Positions 10,064 to 51,738 of a stretch of DNA of 64,000 nucleotides are shown here, in pieces (within the stretch, counting starts at the first letter, position 1; each line of letters begins with the position of its first letter). A program made the position numbers and the translations under genes. Below the pieces are notes generated by a model, which was not told the origin of the DNA, made no database searches, and worked only from the letters and a program-made list of their open reading frames with translations. The stretch is from a virus: the IMG/VR virus record IMGVR_UViG_3300046170_000391; one strand, 5' to 3'.

Positions 10064-10415
10064 CGCGGTGCGGGTGTTGATAGAACCAGGCTAAAGCAAC
10101 TCCTACATCACGGCAGACACTCTTCGAGCGTAAAGCTAAAACAAACTCACGTTTGAAGTTGAGCCACGGGTTACGACAGTTGTCAACAGGCTTCAACACA
10201 GCTATATCACGCTGGCTCCAGTGCTGACAGCGACTTGCATATGCTGCCTCAGCGTTAAGTGAGCGCGTTGACTCGTCGAGTCTCTTTTCTAACAGTTGGA
10301 ACAGCTCTTGAAAAGCTTCGCTTTTCTCGCTATCACTCAGCTCTGAGATGCTAATGCGACGTGCGTTTCTAACTAAATCACGATATGCGTTCTTCGACAC
10401 AAGCTTAAAATACAT
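10044..10415 (-). CDS. Hypothetical (probable early) protein
   Basis: 123-aa ORF directly downstream of a promoter; SD AAGG. Confidence 0.6.
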   Translation of the reverse strand: MYFKLVSKNAYRDLVRNARRISISELSDSEKSEAFQELFQLLEKRLDESTRSLNAEAAYASRCQHWSQRDIAVLKPVDNCRNPWLNFKREFVLALRSKSVCRDVGVALAWFYQHPHRDDWVAA

Positions 10416-14637: not shown

Positions 14638-14971
14638 CCATTGTGTTGATCTTGTCGTTGATATATTGTTAATTGTATGGGAAGTTATCAGTAGTCCAAT
14701 ACTTATAGCTATGCGTCTTATAAGGCACTTTGTAGGTGAGTGGATAACAGATAAAATTAAAGCAGGAGTGCGTAAAATAGCACACTGGTTTGAGCATAAA
14801 AGAGAGTATAGATTAAAAAACGGATATGGAATATTTCGTACATATTGGTGGTTAATTATTTCAAGTCCTATAATTATATTTATCAGTATTTTTATTGTAG
14901 CTATACTGTCAGGATTACACGAAGGTTTAAATATAGCTTTCGAAGAAATTAGTGCTTCGTTTGAGGAGTAG
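14597..14971 (+). CDS. Hypothetical membrane protein
   Basis: Two hydrophobic segments. Confidence 0.55.
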   Translation: MKLLQKIKKWITIDHCVDLVVDILLIVWEVISSPILIAMRLIRHFVGEWITDKIKAGVRKIAHWFEHKREYRLKNGYGIFRTYWWLIISSPIIIFISIFIVAILSGLHEGLNIAFEEISASFEE

Positions 14972-14977
14972 TATAAT

Positions 14978-15018
14978 AGACGGACTGGACTCGGGGGCAG
15001 TACCCGACGGCTCCACCA
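14978..15018 (+). ncRNA. ssrA: Two-piece tmRNA, acceptor piece
   Basis: GAC-TCGGG-GGCAGTA-CCCGA-CGGCTCC-A-CCA: T-arm with alphaproteobacterial GGCRGWA loop, acceptor 3' strand, encoded CCA; 5' end uncertain. Confidence 0.9.
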
Positions 15019-15036
15019 TAAACACAGGAATAACAC

Positions 15037-15252
15037 ATGAAAGAATATATGTTAATAATCAGCATGTGGGGAAGTGATGGAAGCACAGAGCATTACATTG
15101 GTCAGATGGTTTTACAACAACCAATGAGTAAATCTCAGTGTGAGTGGATGATTGAGGATGAACAGTGGGGTGCAAGTTTTGATAATGAGTATTACTTCTT
15201 TGCTAGACACTGTATGCCGAAAGATTGTGCTGGAAAAGATTCCTGTGACTAA
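15037..15252 (+). CDS. 71-aa hypothetical protein nested in the tmRNA intervening segment
   Basis: SD AGGA at 15026, ATG 15037, TAA 15250-15252; 4 Cys. Confidence 0.7.
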   Translation: MKEYMLIISMWGSDGSTEHYIGQMVLQQPMSKSQCEWMIEDEQWGASFDNEYYFFARHCMPKDCAGKDSCD

Positions 15253-15274
15253 ACACTATTGGTGTGTTTATGAT

Positions 15275-15446
15275 GGGGCCGAAATAGGATCGACAGACGT
15301 AATAAAAACAATGCCGAGAAGCAGGTGCGCAAGCGACCTCAACCGCAAGAAAACAAACAATTGCAAATGATAATTTCGCAATCGAGGACTACCGCATAGC
15401 GGCATAGTCTCACGGGGTATGGCTCCACCTAGCAACAGAACGGGCC
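15275..15446 (+). ncRNA. ssrA: Two-piece tmRNA, coding piece; tag (A)ANDNFAIEDYRIAA* at 15363..15407
   Basis: GGGGCCGAAATAGGATCGAC 5' end pairs with CGGCTCC giving the G3:U70 Ala identity pair; ANDN...AA tag; terminal GGGGT..CACCTAGCAACAGAA pseudoknot typical of alphaproteobacterial tmRNA. Confidence 0.92.
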
Positions 15447-15469
15447 TTTACAACTCTTATGAGGATTAA

Positions 15470-44412: not shown

Positions 44413-44654
44413 AAATAAGATACTATAAAAAGATTGATGGTTGGCGTTGGATTGGCTTTTTGCTTGCTATGTTAGGAGCGTTTACTTTATCAAATGCAAA
44501 CGTAGAAACTCAATGGATTGGTTGGTCATTGGGGCTTGCAAGCGGCTCTATATGGATTTATATGGGGTATAAAGATGGTGACCTTCCTAGAACTTTGATG
44601 GAAGTGATGTGGTTTGCAATCGGTATTAGGGCAGTTTGGAATTGGCTACAGTGA
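44409..44654 (+). CDS. Small membrane protein
   Basis: Three short hydrophobic helices. Confidence 0.55.
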   Translation: MKIRYYKKIDGWRWIGFLLAMLGAFTLSNANVETQWIGWSLGLASGSIWIYMGYKDGDLPRTLMEVMWFAIGIRAVWNWLQ

Positions 44655-45937
44655 AAAAAGCAAAAGTAAAAAAGATTACATTAGCTGAAAAAATATATAT
44701 CGCTAAAGAAGATGTAGAAGATGTTGACCATCTTTTAGGTTTATATACTTATGATAACGGAGATGAGTTTTTATCTACCATAACAGAAGATGAATATCAC
44801 TATATAGTACCCTCTAATTCTTATCATAAACTTGAATGGGATGAGATAGAGGATAATCGTAATTTTGAACAAACCGATGCTGATCTTACTTTTACAGGTA
44901 CACTACGCTGGGAACAACAAGAGGTAGTCGATAAGTTTTTTAGTAGAGGTAGAGCTAGATCAGGCATTTTACAAGCTCCTTGTGGTTGGGGTAAGACTTT
45001 TACTGGTTGTGAAATAATATCCAGTAATAAGACTAAAACATTGGTATTAGTCCATACTAAACTTTTATTTAGACAATGGATTGAAGAGCTTGAAAGACAA
45101 ATTCCAACAGTAAAGATAGGCCGTATCGGAGATGGATTATTCGATATTCAAGATATTACAGTAGGTATCTATAAATCTGTATATAATCGAAGAGATGAGT
45201 TGGAAAACTCATTCTCAATGATCTTAGTTGATGAAGCACATCTTTGCCCTGCTGAGATGTTTTCTACAGCGTTAAATTCTTTAAACGCTAAAATTAAAAT
45301 TGGTATTAGCGCAACACCTAGAAGAAAAGATGGAAAACATGTATTTCTGTCCGATTATTTTTCGCCGTTTATAGTTGAAGCACGTGATCCAAGACAGTTA
45401 CAAGACCCCGTAGTTCAAGTTAAACGCACAGACTTCCGATTCCCTGTTATAGATCCAAAACGAGATTGGTCGCGCCAGCTGAACAAACTTTGCGCTAACA
45501 AAGATTACTTGAAAGCTATCGCTAATTTTGCCAAAAGTCAGATAGCCACGGGTCGTTGTCCTTTGATACTTGGGGAGCGTGTACAGATGTTAAAAGATTT
45601 ACAGGAACTGATTCCTGAAAGTGTATGTTTAATAGGAGAATCTGATGAATCAACTAGAAGTGATGTTCTTCAAAATGTTGGAGGTAAATACAAATGTGTA
45701 CTCTCAACAAAGCTCTTTGATGAGGGTATTTCGTGTCATAGGCTTGATACTTTGTATCTTACTTGTCCTAGTAATAATCCTATAAAATTAGAACAAAGAG
45801 TAGGAAGAATTATACGTGAACACCCAGAGAAACAAGTTCCTATGATTGTAGATTTTTGGTTATCAGGAGGTATTGTAGCTCGTCAACAAACAAAAAGACT
45901 TGAATGGTATAAACAGCGTGGATATTATATACTTTAA
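44651..45937 (+). CDS. D10: SF2 DNA helicase (T5 D10-like)
   Basis: APCGWGKT, VDEAH, SAT, EGIS, QRVGRIIR. Confidence 0.88.
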   Translation: MKKAKVKKITLAEKIYIAKEDVEDVDHLLGLYTYDNGDEFLSTITEDEYHYIVPSNSYHKLEWDEIEDNRNFEQTDADLTFTGTLRWEQQEVVDKFFSRGRARSGILQAPCGWGKTFTGCEIISSNKTKTLVLVHTKLLFRQWIEELERQIPTVKIGRIGDGLFDIQDITVGIYKSVYNRRDELENSFSMILVDEAHLCPAEMFSTALNSLNAKIKIGISATPRRKDGKHVFLSDYFSPFIVEARDPRQLQDPVVQVKRTDFRFPVIDPKRDWSRQLNKLCANKDYLKAIANFAKSQIATGRCPLILGERVQMLKDLQELIPESVCLIGESDESTRSDVLQNVGGKYKCVLSTKLFDEGISCHRLDTLYLTCPSNNPIKLEQRVGRIIREHPEKQVPMIVDFWLSGGIVARQQTKRLEWYKQRGYYIL

Positions 45938-46396: not shown

Positions 46397-47053
46397 ATGG
46401 TCGCATGGGATAAAGCTAAAGGAAAGCAAACCTCAAGCAACGAACGTCGTGAAATTCAACGACTCTCACTCGGTATCGGAGATACCAAAGTACGTCTTCT
46501 TGGAGACGTAATGCCTCGCTACTGTTATTGGGTAGTAACAAAAGAAGGAAAGAAGATGCCTGTTGAGTGTCTTCAATTTTCTCGTGAAAACGAAACTTTT
46601 GATAATTCTGCTCAAGACCCTTTCAAAGAAATTGATGAGGCTATCTATTCAGATAAACCACAATTCTCATATGTTTGCAACGTGATTGATCGTTCAGACG
46701 GACAAATTAAACTGTTCGATCTTCGCTCAACTATATATTCTCAGATTGTAGATTATGCTACTAATCCTGATTATGGAAATCCAGCAGATAGCGAAGGTGG
46801 TTATGATATTACCATTAAAAAAGAAAAGACAGGACCTCTTCCACAAAATGTGAAATACTCCTGTCTGCCTGCTCGTAATAACTCTGCTCTTACAGATGCA
46901 GAAAAAGCTCTTGAGCTTTATGAATTATCAAAAATTTATAAACGTCAAACATATGATGAGCAAAAAGAGTGGTTGTTAAATAACACCTCTTATTTCGCAG
47001 GTGATGTATCTGACGAATTTAAACCAGCAGAAGATGTGGATGACCTAGCTTAA
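46397..47053 (+). CDS. D11: ssDNA-binding protein (T5 D11-like)
   Basis: VRLLGDVMPRYCYWV, KTGPLPQNVKY, acidic C-terminus. Confidence 0.75.
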   Translation: MVAWDKAKGKQTSSNERREIQRLSLGIGDTKVRLLGDVMPRYCYWVVTKEGKKMPVECLQFSRENETFDNSAQDPFKEIDEAIYSDKPQFSYVCNVIDRSDGQIKLFDLRSTIYSQIVDYATNPDYGNPADSEGGYDITIKKEKTGPLPQNVKYSCLPARNNSALTDAEKALELYELSKIYKRQTYDEQKEWLLNNTSYFAGDVSDEFKPAEDVDDLA

Positions 47054-47874
47054 TGAAAAAATCACTATCAGAGATGAAACCACCAAAGCCAGTAGTAGAA
47101 GGTGAGAAAAAAGTTACATCTTTTGGCGCTTTTTCACAAGTTGAAGGTGATCAAGCTACAATTGATTTGAATAAATTAAGAGAGTACAATGTATTCTTTG
47201 CAACTCCTTGTTATGGGGGCATGTTAACAGATCAATTCTTCTTATCGATGTTTAGGATGAGCCAAGCTTTTATTCAGCATGGTATCAATTTTAGGATTAC
47301 TACACTTCGTAACGAATCTCTGGTTACGCGTGCAAGGAATATCTTAACTGCGATGTTTCTTGAGTCTGACTGTACACATTTGATGTTTATTGATTCTGAT
47401 ATTGAATTTGACGTAGAGTCTATTCTAAGAGCCTTAGCGTATGACAAACCCATAATGGCAGCGGCATACCCTAAAAAAGCACTACCAATTCAATATGCAA
47501 TTAATTTCAAGTTCGTTGATGCTGAAACTAGAAAAATTAGAATTGAAAATGGAGCTGTAGAAGTACTTGACGCATCTACTGGTTTCTTTCTTGTAAAAAG
47601 AGAGACAGTCGAAAAGATGTGTCAAGCATACCCAGAACTTCATTATCGTAATGATTCTAACATTGACGAAAAGTTCAATAAACATTGCTATGCACTATTC
47701 GATACTTGGTTAGACCCTGATGATAATCGTTATCTTTCTGAAGACTATACTTTCTGTCGTAGATGGCAAAAGATTGGGGGAGAAATTTGGTTAGATCCAA
47801 ATACGAAACTGAATCATGTTGGAAGTTACACTTTTGAGGGTGATGTCGGTATGATCATTAACAAGAAAAACTAA
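47053..47874 (+). CDS. Phage glycosyltransferase-like protein (GT-A)
   Basis: ATPCYGG, ESLVTRARN, FIDSDI, LSEDYTFCRRW. Confidence 0.7.
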   Translation: MKKSLSEMKPPKPVVEGEKKVTSFGAFSQVEGDQATIDLNKLREYNVFFATPCYGGMLTDQFFLSMFRMSQAFIQHGINFRITTLRNESLVTRARNILTAMFLESDCTHLMFIDSDIEFDVESILRALAYDKPIMAAAYPKKALPIQYAINFKFVDAETRKIRIENGAVEVLDASTGFFLVKRETVEKMCQAYPELHYRNDSNIDEKFNKHCYALFDTWLDPDDNRYLSEDYTFCRRWQKIGGEIWLDPNTKLNHVGSYTFEGDVGMIINKKN

Positions 47875-47878
47875 AAAT

Positions 47879-48016
47879 AAGGCGTAGTTCTGGCGTGGCT
47901 AAGGCTATGTGGAACTACGTTCCTTGCTGCGGCACTACGTGCCGACGCTAACACACATAGGCAAGTCGTGTTCAACAGCTTTTCACCTGCCGGTGTAGCG
48001 CTGTTCACAAGCTAGT
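47879..48016. other. GC-rich multi-hairpin intergenic element (candidate ncRNA or origin)
   Basis: About 55% GC over 47881-48010 in an AT-rich genome; several perfect stems; strand ambiguous. Confidence 0.6.
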
Positions 48017-48022
48017 AAACAT

Positions 48023-48051
48023 AAATTAGCATATATTTTGAGGAGAGGCAA
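48023..48051 (-). promoter_or_regulatory. Possible antisense promoter reading into the structured element
   Basis: TTGCCT-N17-TAATTT with TG extension; overlaps D12 SD. Confidence 0.4.
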
Positions 48052-48057
48052 ATTCAA

Positions 48058-49020
48058 ATGACTAAGATTATCTGTTCTGCAGATTGGCACATAAATTTAC
48101 ACAAGAAAAAAGTACCTTACGAATGGCAAGTTAGTAGGTTTAAAGCAATGTTCCGTAAACTTATCGCACTTGAACAAAGTTGTGATGTACATATTATAGC
48201 TGGTGACATATTTGATAAAAAACCAGAACCAGATGAAATCTGTTTGTTTCTAAGCTATATCAATTCTGTCACAATACCAACCTACATCATTCCAGGAAAT
48301 CATGAAGCCACTAAAAAAGGAGAATCTTTCTTTGAACATTTTAATGAAGATAATGCCATCAAAAATGAGAACGTCAATTTATTTACTAGAAACGGACGTG
48401 CGACTGTGGGTAAAACGTCGTTTCAATTCTACCCGTATGGCGAAATGCAGCTCGATAATCTACCAACATATGTCAACGATGATATATTGGTTACGCATAT
48501 TCGTGGAGAAGTGCCTCCGCATATTACGCCGGAATATGATTTCTCCCGTCTCTCCCCTTGGGGCTTATGTCTACTTGGCGATCTACACTTTAATCATCGT
48601 TATGGCGACACTAACTGTTACTATCCTGGTTCTCCGTTAAACACTACATTTGATCGTGATGAACATCGTGAATATGGAGTAGATATTTTTAACGTAGTAG
48701 ATTCACACAACTACACACGTGAGTTCTATGACTTAAAACTACCTAAACTTATACGCCGTAAGATTGCTGTTGGAGAAGAAATGCGCCCTGCTGAGTATGA
48801 CCATGTGGTATATGAAGTTACTGGATCTCTGGATCAACTAGCTAAGATGGAAAATTCTGAGTTGCTAGATAAAAAGATGGTAGAAAAGCCAGCGGAGGAG
48901 TCCACCCTTGATCTTAAAAATAAAACAATTTATGAAGAACTAGAGATTTATCTTAAGCATATTAAAGTTGCAGATACAGAACAAGTACTAACGGAGTTCA
49001 AATCTCTAAATGCCCTCTGA
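48058..49020 (+). CDS. D12: Mre11/SbcD-like nuclease (T5 D12)
   Basis: SADWH, AGDIFD, PGNHE, GDLH, YPGS. Confidence 0.88.
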   Translation: MTKIICSADWHINLHKKKVPYEWQVSRFKAMFRKLIALEQSCDVHIIAGDIFDKKPEPDEICLFLSYINSVTIPTYIIPGNHEATKKGESFFEHFNEDNAIKNENVNLFTRNGRATVGKTSFQFYPYGEMQLDNLPTYVNDDILVTHIRGEVPPHITPEYDFSRLSPWGLCLLGDLHFNHRYGDTNCYYPGSPLNTTFDRDEHREYGVDIFNVVDSHNYTREFYDLKLPKLIRRKIAVGEEMRPAEYDHVVYEVTGSLDQLAKMENSELLDKKMVEKPAEESTLDLKNKTIYEELEIYLKHIKVADTEQVLTEFKSLNAL

Positions 49021-49831
49021 TTTATCTTTAAACCGCGTTTATTGGGAATATCCCCAAAGTGGTACTTATCTTCGCCCTCAATATAATTATTGTTGTACTT
49101 CGTTTATTCCCTCACTAGGAGTTAGGGCTAACATACCTGAGTACTCAAAGCGTAGTTCATCTTTTAGAGAAGACCTCAAAAAGTTAGCGGTTTCTTTTGC
49201 AGAAAAATATAAAGACCATCGTTTCGTATTAGCCTTGTCAGGAGGTATAGATTCTGAGGTTACAGCAGAACAGTTTTATGAACTAAATATCCCTTTTCGT
49301 GGATTATCTCTAAGATTATTTGATGGAACTAATGATCATGATATTTTATGTGCGGCTAAGTACTGTAGAGATAGAGAGATACCGCTAAAAATTGTGAATC
49401 TAGGATGGGATAGGATGATAGATGAAACTATACCAGACGCAGTTGAGCGCGGACAGTTTACCCACGCATATTCACAGATTGCACTCACCCACCTATTTCA
49501 ACACGTTGATGAGGATGAAATATTAATATTTTCAGGGCATAATCCTGACTTTCATAGAGGTATTGGTGTAGGTTGGTGGGAGGACTCTCCTAACATGGTT
49601 AAGTATGCTATCTCTAAAAGTAAAAAATTCTTTACTTTTACATCGCTCGAACCAATCTTTTGTCACTATGCAGCTAACTTCGATGATACACAGCCTGGAG
49701 ACAAGAATAATGATTTTATTTATGAAGCATTCCCACAACTCAAACGTAGAGTCAAAATGACAGGATGGGAAAAGAATGCTAAAATTATACCAGACTTAGA
49801 AGATAGAATTAGAGAATGTTCTACACTATAG
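49010..49831 (+). CDS. PP-loop (adenine nucleotide alpha-hydrolase) protein
   Basis: LALSGGIDSE; 3' end runs into an error-rich region. Confidence 0.6.
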   Translation: MPSDLSLNRVYWEYPQSGTYLRPQYNYCCTSFIPSLGVRANIPEYSKRSSSFREDLKKLAVSFAEKYKDHRFVLALSGGIDSEVTAEQFYELNIPFRGLSLRLFDGTNDHDILCAAKYCRDREIPLKIVNLGWDRMIDETIPDAVERGQFTHAYSQIALTHLFQHVDEDEILIFSGHNPDFHRGIGVGWWEDSPNMVKYAISKSKKFFTFTSLEPIFCHYAANFDDTQPGDKNNDFIYEAFPQLKRRVKMTGWEKNAKIIPDLEDRIRECSTL

Positions 49832-49913
49832 ACGAGCAATCATTTATTACATGGGAAAGATTTACCTTAAATTTTATGAGAGAATTTTTATGAAAGGAAA
49901 TTAAAGGATCACT

Positions 49914-51738
49914 ATGAGTAACATAGTATTAAAACATTAAAATTTTCTAATATGTTTAGTTATGGAAAAGATAATGTAATTGATTTATCATAAAATCGTA
50001 TTACACAACTTACTGCACCTAATGGTAGTGGTAAATCTTCTATTGCGATGATTATTCAAGAAGCTACTATTTAATAAAAACTTAAAGGAATTAAGAAAAC
50101 TGATATTCTTAATCGTTGGACAAAGATAAGTCTTGGTCTACGCTCACTTACTTTTACTAAGATCGATAATGATTATGAAGTTATAGTTACAGATCAGGGG
50201 CACAAACTAAAGTTAACTTAATTGAAAATGGTATTGATATATCGGATCATAAAGTACTAGATACTTACAAAAAAATTGCAGATATTATAGGCACAGATTT
50301 TGAGGTATTTTCACAGCTTACATATCAATCATCTACAGATTTACTAGAGTTCTTAAAGGCCACCGATGCTAATAGAAAGAAATTCTTAATCAATTTATTT
50401 AACCTAGAGAAGTATATTACTATTGGAGAAAAAATTAAGTCTAAGTCCACAGAAACTGATAGAGAATATAATAGGCTTATCGGTGAGCTAAAAACTATTG
50501 AAGATTTTCTTGCCCTCACCTCAATACCTACTAAGAAAACTGAGCAAGAAGTACCTGAAGTTAATGAAGCACTACAAAGACAGATAGGCGTACTACAGCA
50601 AGAATTACAAAATTACGAATCAACATGTAAAAAAATTGATCGTAATAATATGTACATAGAAGAGCGAGATACCCTAGATTTCAACCCTGGAATGACTGTC
50701 CCAGATGAGTTTTTATACTATGATGAGTATCAAACACTAAAACAAGATTTAATCATGTTACAACGAGATATGCATAAAATTAAAAGTGACATAGGTAATA
50801 TAAGAGTTAACGATACCTGCCCATCTTGTGGACAAACTATTGACACTTCTCACCTTGAAAAACTAAAAGCAGATTTAGAAGATCAGCTAAATGAAAAAAC
50901 AACTCTATATTCAGAAGGAATGACCAAAGCTACTAAATGGTCTAATGAAGTAAAAGAAATTGAAAATAAAAAACTAGAATATAATGAGAATAAAAGAAAA
51001 ATTGAAAGATTCGAGCATTTGTCACAGTTAATTGATTCTTCTATTCCAAATGAGTATCCTGATATAGGCAACATTGAAACAAGGATTAAAGATTTACAAA
51101 GTGAATATAACATTCAATCAAGAGAGTCTAAAGTAGCGCAAGAACATAATAAACAAGTCGGAATCCACAATGCGAGAGTAGACGCCCTAATTGACCAAAA
51201 AAATGATTTTACTGTTAGACAACAAAGTGTGAAAGATGATACTCTAACTAAATCAAATCAGATAAATTCTTTAAATATTCTTAAAAAAGCCTTTAGCACG
51301 TCTGGTATCGTAGCATTTAAGCTTGAGAATTTAACTAAAGAACTAGAAGTTTCGATAAATTATTATTTATCAATATTAAGTGATGGTCAATTTCAAGTAG
51401 AATTTAAACTTGATAAAGAAAAACTAAACATATCCGTTATCAATAACGGAATCGCAACACCAATAGAAACTGTGTCAGGAGGTGAATTCTCAAGAATTCA
51501 GACCTCCATTCTTTTAGCTATTAGAAGTCTGCTATCGAAACTAGGTGGTAGTAGTGTTAACCTTCTATTCCTTGATGAGATTACTGGTGTTCTTGACGAT
51601 GAAGGAAAAGAGAAACTAGTAGAGGTTCTTCAAAAAGAAGGTAATCTTAATGTATTTCTCATTTCACATGATTTTACCCATCCATTAATTGATAAAGTTT
51701 CTATCGTTAAAGACGATAATATAAGTTCTATACAGTAA
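49914..51738 (+). CDS. D13: Rad50/SbcC-like ATPase (T5 D13); 5' ~300 nt has several apparent indels
   Basis: FSNMFSYG and Walker A PNGSGKS near 50020 in broken frames; open from ~50218; zinc hook CPSCG, VSGGE, LFLDE, ISH. Confidence 0.85.

Follow-up and report, generated by a model that had tools for sequence, protein, structure and literature searches.

The window analysed here, a 64,000-nt stretch of viral DNA, comes from an uncultured marine T5-like phage, and its gene order is that of T5 itself. Just before the gene for the D12 nuclease lies an ORF-free gap of 183 nt (47875-48057), and all annotated genes near this gap are encoded on the plus strand (Table 1). Genes for an NAD ligase, a D5-like regulator, a DnaB-like helicase, a DnaG-like primase and PolA are found further upstream; measured from the element described below, the SSB gene is 820 bp away, and the primase, the DnaB-like helicase and PolA are at 9-14 kb. 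The nearest cultured D12 proteins, those of Vibrio T5-like phages, are merely 40% identical, and a blastn search of the site against cultured phages gave no match.

Table 1 Genes and features at the D12 junction of the window, in window coordinates
Feature	Position	Strand	Basis or remark
D10-type helicase	44636-45937	+	Gene annotation
gp32-like SSB	46397-47053	+	Gene annotation
phrog_1574 protein	47053-47874	+	Gene annotation; directly upstream of the gap
U-run UUAUUUUUAGUUUUU	47866-47878	-	Overlaps the stop codon of the upstream plus-strand gene
3' segment GAACUACG-CCUU, candidate terminator stem	47879-47890	-	Pairs with plus-strand 47912-47925; competes with H1'
Hairpin H1' (GGAAC-GUA-GUUCC)	47911-47923	-	3 of 5 pairs with two-sided changes
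Hairpin H2' (CGGCAC-GUA-GUGCCG, 47930-47944) with two outer G-C pairs	47926-47948	-	6 of 6 pairs with two-sided changes
5' module: H3' (CACC-GGCA-GGUG, plus-strand 47984-47995) between two AGCU..UGAACA boxes	47969-48008	-	Most conserved block; invariant columns
Two AGCU..UGAACA boxes	Plus-strand 47969-47979 and 48002-48013	-	Invariant columns
Predicted transcription start, ~48016	48014-48018	-	Placed 7 nt downstream of the -10
Putative extended -10, TATGC-TAATTT	48023-48033	-	T, G, T and A of TGnTA each in 75 of 75 copies
Putative -35 box, TTGCCT	48046-48051	-	TTG in 73-74 of 75 unique copies; variants include TTGACG
D12 SbcD-like nuclease	48058-49020	+	Gene annotation; directly downstream of the gap, followed by a D13 SbcC-like protein

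An earlier note on this DNA had called the site the only long GC-rich non-coding stretch besides the tmRNA, which is roughly true but not strictly so: the gap has the highest GC content among the ORF-free gaps of the window (0.46 overall and 0.55 in its best 100 nt), followed by a gap of 154 nt at 768-921 (0.44) and by the tmRNA gap (0.42). At gathering thresholds, Rfam 15 matches the window with tmRNA models only (14903-15449), and nothing overlaps the element over 47700-48200 at E values up to 10; a scan for tRNA and tmRNA genes likewise finds nothing at the gap. Coding potential was considered and discarded: a 45-codon minus-strand ORF and the plus-strand ORFs of some relatives are broken by 1-nt indels or are absent in other copies, and no ORF is common to all copies of the element. 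The 64-kb window carries the element once, and repeats of its promoter box or of its UGAACA box elsewhere in the window do not exceed chance.

Downstream of D12, between 49010 and 51738, the D13 (SbcC-like) gene seems to be broken. Its main ORF (50179/50650-51738) is in a different frame from the Walker-A segment (APNGSGKSS, ~49994-50074) and from the piece after it (50078-50221), so that at least two frameshifts or assembly errors are needed to account for them. An unrelated ORF of 273 aa with an SGGxDS PP-loop motif (49010-49831) is placed between D12 and D13, and Rfam gives no match over 49600-50800.

Relatives and gene neighbourhoods

With D12 as bait, we retrieved 80 related IMG/VR loci, of which 57 carry the element according to blastn (74-95% identity). 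When the viral collection was scanned by pattern, 81 stretches emerged; pooled with the D12 loci, they make up 75 unique copies. The relatives that carry the element are uncultured marine viruses; each contig has one copy and, among the 75 unique sequences, this copy is always on the strand opposite to D12. A match to an Acidobacteria MAG in a scan of a genome collection was taken as chance, as the covariance model did not match it. RNA libraries of two or more studies also yielded contigs with relatives of the element; as such contigs carry no information on strand, ends or expression level and may derive partly from DNA, we do not count them as evidence of expression.

The element is often not adjacent to D12. 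Depending on the locus, various plus-strand genes are inserted on either side of it, and the flanking genes found across loci include D11-like and radical-SAM-like genes and genes for proteins of 214, 240 and 618 aa. Since the neighbours differ on both sides among loci, the element is an autonomous module at a gene-exchange hot spot. It is also accessory, because some close relatives do without it at the D12 junction: in the loci L065, L068, L069 and L071-73, whose D12 proteins are 66-67% identical, a D11-like gene abuts D12 and the covariance model has no match within 3 kb, though a copy may be located further away in these genomes. T5 and Vibrio phage Brizo are likewise without the element at the D11-D12 junction and have a small gene-sense terminator there instead. 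At the other end of the range, the distant members L080 and L074-78 keep the promoter and the GNA hairpins, with stems that differ.

Across the loci L001-L060, the accessory genes that flank the element include those for radical-SAM-like proteins of ~307-311 aa, another family of ~613-618 aa and proteins of 214, 240 and 190 aa. Three relatives without the element (L066:2566-2998, L067 and L070) have a different gap of 430 nt before D12, which ends in an 11-bp inverted repeat (CCTCGTTATTA / TAATAACGAGG) around a gene-sense consensus promoter, TTGCAT-17-TATAAT.

Covarying hairpins and the folding strand

Folded as a single sequence, the site is only moderately better than its shuffled versions (z of -2.8 for plus-strand RNA, -1.3 for minus-strand RNA and -2.3 for minus-strand DNA), so the case for a structure rests on comparison with relatives. 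The earlier note had advised collecting homologues and looking for covariation, and across the 75 unique copies three hairpins do covary strongly. We built a covariance model from 43 diverse copies and realigned 86 matches to it; in this alignment, 91% of cells are paired and two-sided changes occur in 14 of the 26 pairs. None of 500 shuffles reaches any of these measures, and slid partners pair in 32-58% of cells; judged by these controls, the conservation is not due to chance. The structured non-coding element that the note had proposed is thus real and conserved, and has no match in Rfam.

The arms that had been spelled out are all present in the window: GGAAC-TAC-GTTCC (47911-47923), CGGCAC-TAC-GTGCCG (47930-47944) and AACAGC..CACC-TGCC-GGTG..GCTGTT (47974-48005). 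The sequences CTATGT (47905-47910) and ACATAG (47955-47960) are there too, but the three-way junction that they were thought to close around the first two arms is not conserved; their helix forms in a subset of sequences, without compensation elsewhere, and we rejected it.

H1' exchanges its stem freely among copies (GGAAC/GUUCC, GGCAAC/GUUGCC, AUGCGC/GCGCAU, GGAAAC/GUUUCC and GAGCAC/GUGCUC). Among its loops, 45 are GUA and 27 are GGA, and C-G closes the loop in 73 of 73 distinct copies. The stems of H2' include GGCAC, GGCGC, GUCUC, AGAAC and GUUUC, under a GGA, GUA or GAA loop and rarely a GUUA loop. In the cap helix of H3', every cell is paired and three of the four pairs show two-sided changes, from CACC/GGUG to CAAC/GUUG. 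Read on the minus strand, the loops of the three hairpins are GUA, GGA, GAA or GCA, rarely GGCA, GCCA or GUUA, and all three hairpins close a GNA or GNNA loop with C-G in 69-73 of the 73 distinct copies; about half of the loops have U or C as their central base. The C-GNA-G reading of the minus-strand loops, which the earlier note had taken from two hairpins in one genome, is therefore obeyed across the family. RNA hairpins are expected to use GNRA or UUCG loops, and the T5 terminator at the D11-D12 junction has a UUCG loop, unlike the C(GNA)G of the element.

The strand that folds can be read from the wobble pairs. Modelled pairs include 108 G-U cells against 26 A-C cells on the minus strand, where A-C corresponds to G-U on the plus strand. 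When stems are extended from the loops free of any alignment, the pair next to perfect H2' or H1' stems is a minus-strand wobble in about 20 copies and the opposite in 0-1. Because of this excess of G-U over A-C, the minus strand is the folding strand, though the plus strand of the window itself has the lower predicted energy. The same wobbles speak against the long G-U-rich plus-strand hairpin of the earlier note, which we rejected. In the core stem pairs, G-U is nearly absent and pairing is almost purely Watson-Crick.

Hairpins of the same loop type were also seen outside the three described here. Loci L012, L025, L028, L021 and others have a fourth small hairpin just before the start codon (plus-strand CTTTTC-TAC-GAAAGG). 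It occupies part of the spacer between the -35 and -10 boxes of the minus strand and reaches into the ribosome-binding region of the gene that follows; pairing is slightly better on the plus strand, and as the sequence is identical in all copies, no covariation is seen. Counting stems of 5 bp or more, five C(GNA)G hairpins are found in the window, compared to a chance expectation of about one. A 6-bp hairpin with a C(GGA)G loop, GGTATC-GGA-GATACC, is located in the SSB gene (46465-46479, plus strand), and a 7-bp hairpin on the minus strand at ~10303-10335, GAAAAGC-GAA-GCTTTTC, contains the exact GCGAAGC DNA mini-hairpin. The latter is near a switch of GC skew and gene orientation and may be a bidirectional terminator or another strand-specific signal.

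Promoter, 5' module and 3' end

The promoter-like site that the earlier note had seen pointing into the hairpins on the minus strand proved to be the best-conserved feature of the whole element. With the 75 copies anchored on the minus-strand TGCTA, the spacer between -35 and -10 is exactly 17 nt in every copy, whatever its sequence, and the -10 hexamer always consists of A and T only (TAATTT, TAAATT, TATATA or TATTAT), preceded by an invariant T-R-T-G-n. A 17-nt spacer, TRTGnTA and TTG together read as the signature of a sigma-70 extended -10 promoter. The match to the covariance model begins at 48017, and length variation is confined to a short stretch at the predicted start. In locus L105, a consensus scan finds TTGACG-17-TATTAT with an upstream TG (10/12), ending 6 nt before the model match, and the promoter motif is retained in the distant L080, L074-77 and L078. 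Whichever plus-strand gene follows, its start codon is 7-20 nt away from the -35 box.

In the window itself, the minus-strand promoter is weak by consensus score (its -10 is TAATTT), and the only promoter that the scan lists there is on the plus strand, TTCACA-17-TAGCAT (48004-48032, 9/12). This candidate shares its central TA with the minus-strand -10, its own spacer varies from 15 to 17 nt among copies, and its -10 has an invariant G and C at the centre, which is atypical; its -35 belongs to a box that recurs 33 nt away, where a promoter role is impossible. No conserved position requires a plus-strand promoter as its explanation, and the plus-strand site may also fire.

Within the 5' module, the two boxes could pair with each other in a lower helix, with a tandem A-A internal loop; this helix is paired in 87.5% of cells, shows almost no covariation and is hence unproven. 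The motif TGTTCAC resembles DnaA boxes and the UL9 boxes of herpesviruses, but it is too short for this to be given weight.

At the other end, YURYG-YCY is the final conserved segment; by complementarity, it can pair with the 5' strand and loop of H1', and this pairing excludes H1'. The earlier note had noticed that CGTAGTTC at 47883-47890 is complementary to GAACTACG at 47912-47919, as it is, and had proposed a mutually exclusive fold; the family does keep this pairing, but on the minus strand, where it would form a helix just 5' of the U-run. Five core pairs are formed in 69-100% of the 75 copies, nearly all changes on the 3' side are transitions that retain a minus-strand G-U, and the helix pairs 73% of cells compared to 32-58% in slid controls; it is also part of the predicted minimum-energy fold of the minus strand of the window. 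Tested against 500 shuffles, its pairing and covariation score are borderline (21 and 47 shuffles reach them), and its counts of pairs and of pair types do not rise above the chance level of the shuffles.

A run of 4-6 U follows a conserved YGYGYCY in most gene contexts, ~140 nt downstream of the promoter, and is weaker (AUUUC) in one subgroup. The U-run is part of the element, as seen in several different gene contexts. The scan detects a canonical terminator at the same place in L078, a 14-pair minus-strand hairpin with a U-run; the 3' end in the window is a long interrupted stem followed by the U-run, and one subgroup is without a clear terminator. A long-range pairing between the linker and the 3' end was also tried and dropped, subgroups being inconsistent.

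A small RNA, an origin or an operon signal

The reading that we favour, with a probability of roughly 0.6, is that the gap is a self-contained gene for a new non-coding small RNA of ~145 nt, encoded on the minus strand and antisense to all its neighbours. What leads to a small-RNA gene of this length is that a conserved promoter, a U-rich end and a fold that covaries on the sense strand of the promoter occur together in a unit that is independent of the surrounding genes and lacks coding potential. Direct observation supports its conservation and autonomy, its hairpins and the strand on which they fold, and a promoter-like pattern of conserved positions; from these, we infer a transcription start, termination and a discrete, stable RNA species.

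Host RNA polymerase would initiate at the T5-style extended -10 promoter, whose -35 is a few bases from the D12 start codon, and the predicted RNA would start near 48016 and proceed leftwards. The almost invariant 5' module would fold first, as a short capped hairpin between the AGCU..UGAACA boxes, followed by the two freely covarying hairpins, so that C(GNA)G triloops would cap all three; the RNA would end at the U-run, after the 3' segment that competes with the last hairpin for pairing. As to function, we can speculate that it is a regulatory RNA made early in infection, that it works through the invariant 5' module, by seeding on a target RNA or by binding a protein, and that the GNA-capped hairpins give stability and set the 3' end.

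Several observations count against a small RNA. In the window, the plus strand folds better as RNA and the minus-strand promoter has a weak consensus score, and one subgroup has no clear terminator. The near-absence of G-U in the core stems also has to be weighed, as does the loop motif, which is a hallmark of DNA: C(GNA)G and C(GNNA)G form extraordinarily stable DNA mini-hairpins at the complementary-strand origins of G4, St-1 and alpha3, at RSF1010 ssiA and at N4 promoters (PMC13037366), and their RNA counterparts are much less stable (PMC13037366; PMC10085684).

The loops and the Watson-Crick stems would suit a transcription-activated replication origin or single-strand initiation signal, which we regard as less likely than the small RNA, and indeed as unlikely. 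The minus-strand promoter would open the duplex, and the displaced non-template strand, which has the sequence of the RNA, would fold three SSB-resistant C(GNA)G DNA mini-hairpins to be read by the phage DnaG-type primase or a helicase loader; the transcript may also prime leftward synthesis. With the same low odds, the element would be the first sequence-defined replication start of a T5-like phage, its promoter-exposed mini-hairpins resisting SSB and recruiting the DnaG-type primase and the helicase. All three hairpins have exactly the DNA motif, including the C-G closure, it is the non-template strand that folds, relative to the conserved promoter, and the element is inside the replication module, with SSB, primase, helicase and PolA upstream; moreover, the replication origins of T5 are internal, multiple and not defined by sequence (PMC3632103). 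However, the relatives in which the model has no match within 3 kb of D12 would be odd for an essential origin, and T5 and Brizo carry only the small terminator at this junction. GC skew, by which the earlier note had suggested mapping an origin, has no inflection here, and cumulative skew climbs smoothly through 48 kb. The RNA-sense strand is not G-rich, leaving nothing to favour a persistent R-loop, and we see no AT-rich unwinding block above the background of the genome and no iteron array beyond the two boxes. Finally, the conserved U-run and the canonical terminator of L078 suggest release of the transcript rather than an annealed primer. The smooth skew, the close relatives without the element and the RNA terminator of a distant member are what tip the balance from an essential origin to a discrete small RNA.

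Known signals made of DNA mini-hairpins (the G4, St-1 and alpha3 origins, RSF1010 ssiA and the N4 early promoters; PMC13037366) resemble the element in their cluster of short, strand-specific hairpins with G-N-A or G-N-N-A loops closed by C-G, and the element has replication genes beside it, including SSB and a DnaG-type primase. Those signals are found on single-stranded genomes, at plasmid oriV or with a virion RNA polymerase, whereas the element belongs to a large double-stranded DNA phage of the T5 type, is situated between a host-type promoter and a U-run, and is dispensed with in close relatives. Stem and loop sizes fit N4 promoters (5-7 bp and 3 nt), but N4 loops must have a central purine, and in the element GUA and GCA loops are common. 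Among those ORFs of the window that were scanned, none matches an RNA polymerase family.

Less probable again is a cis-antisense regulator of the operon junction, whose minus-strand RNA would act only by pairing with read-through mRNA or through collision of polymerases, with the effect that expression of the D12/D13 nuclease is uncoupled from, or damped relative to, the upstream genes. The short distance between the -35 box and the following start codon would suit such a role, as would the neighbours being all on the plus strand, which makes any read-through RNA fully complementary to the small RNA. The terminator of T5 and Brizo points the same way by marking an operon boundary in T5-like phages, at the same junction where the D11-side operon ends right before D12. 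That terminator is a single gene-sense GC hairpin (UUCG loop in T5, UUCU in Brizo) with a U-run, in gaps of 36 and 46 nt, whereas the gap in the window measures 183 nt and contains three hairpins and an antisense promoter, but no gene-sense U-run. Simple antisense could do without covarying hairpins, a strict loop rule and an invariant 5' module, and the genes on either side vary among loci.

A plus-strand boundary cassette similar to the PeSLs of T4-type phages is very doubtful. Its hairpins would end the mRNA from upstream or stabilise it, transcription of D12 would begin anew at TTCACA-17-TAGCAT, and the conserved block would double as a recombination anchor for swaps of neighbouring genes. 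The listed plus-strand promoter, the variable genes on either side, as at PeSLs (PMC2839356, PMC4122927), and the better plus-strand pairing of the extra hairpin before the start codon in one subgroup agree with it. The -12 T and -11 A of that promoter are also invariant, being positions that it shares with the minus-strand -10. On the other side, the wobble asymmetry indicates the minus strand, the plus-strand spacer varies in length, the G and C in mid -10 are atypical, no plus-strand U-run follows the hairpins, and the element is single-copy rather than a dispersed family. PeSLs and the element have in common a conserved intergenic block of promoter and stem-loop that borders variable genes (PMC2839356, PMC4122927); PeSLs are short, gene-sense and present in multiple copies per genome, whereas the element has 180 nt, a single copy and a best-supported promoter that is antisense.

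The small-RNA gene that we favour compares best with the stand-alone small RNA genes of bacteria and phages, with which the element shares a conserved promoter of its own, covarying hairpins, a 5' region that is the most conserved, an end in a U-run, a canonical terminator in one subfamily and independence from flanking genes. It differs from them in that it resembles no Rfam 15 family even at E below 10, in that its hairpins all have C(GNA)G triloops and not GNRA or UNCG loops, and in that it is antisense inside a one-directional replication operon.

The element adds a well-supported new family of structured RNA, one that covaries strongly and has a clearly defined promoter, to an abundant clade of uncultured marine T5-like phages. 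It also marks a hot spot at which accessory genes are exchanged on two sides, and this makes it useful for understanding how modules are shuffled in these genomes. Its strict C(GNA)G loop rule is unusual for RNA and offers a clean test case for whether such mini-hairpins work as RNA, as extruded DNA or as both. If the origin reading were true, the element would be the first defined origin of a T5-like phage and would link transcription to G4-type priming in a large double-stranded DNA phage, its G4/ssiA-type priming signal lying within a transcription unit that activates it.
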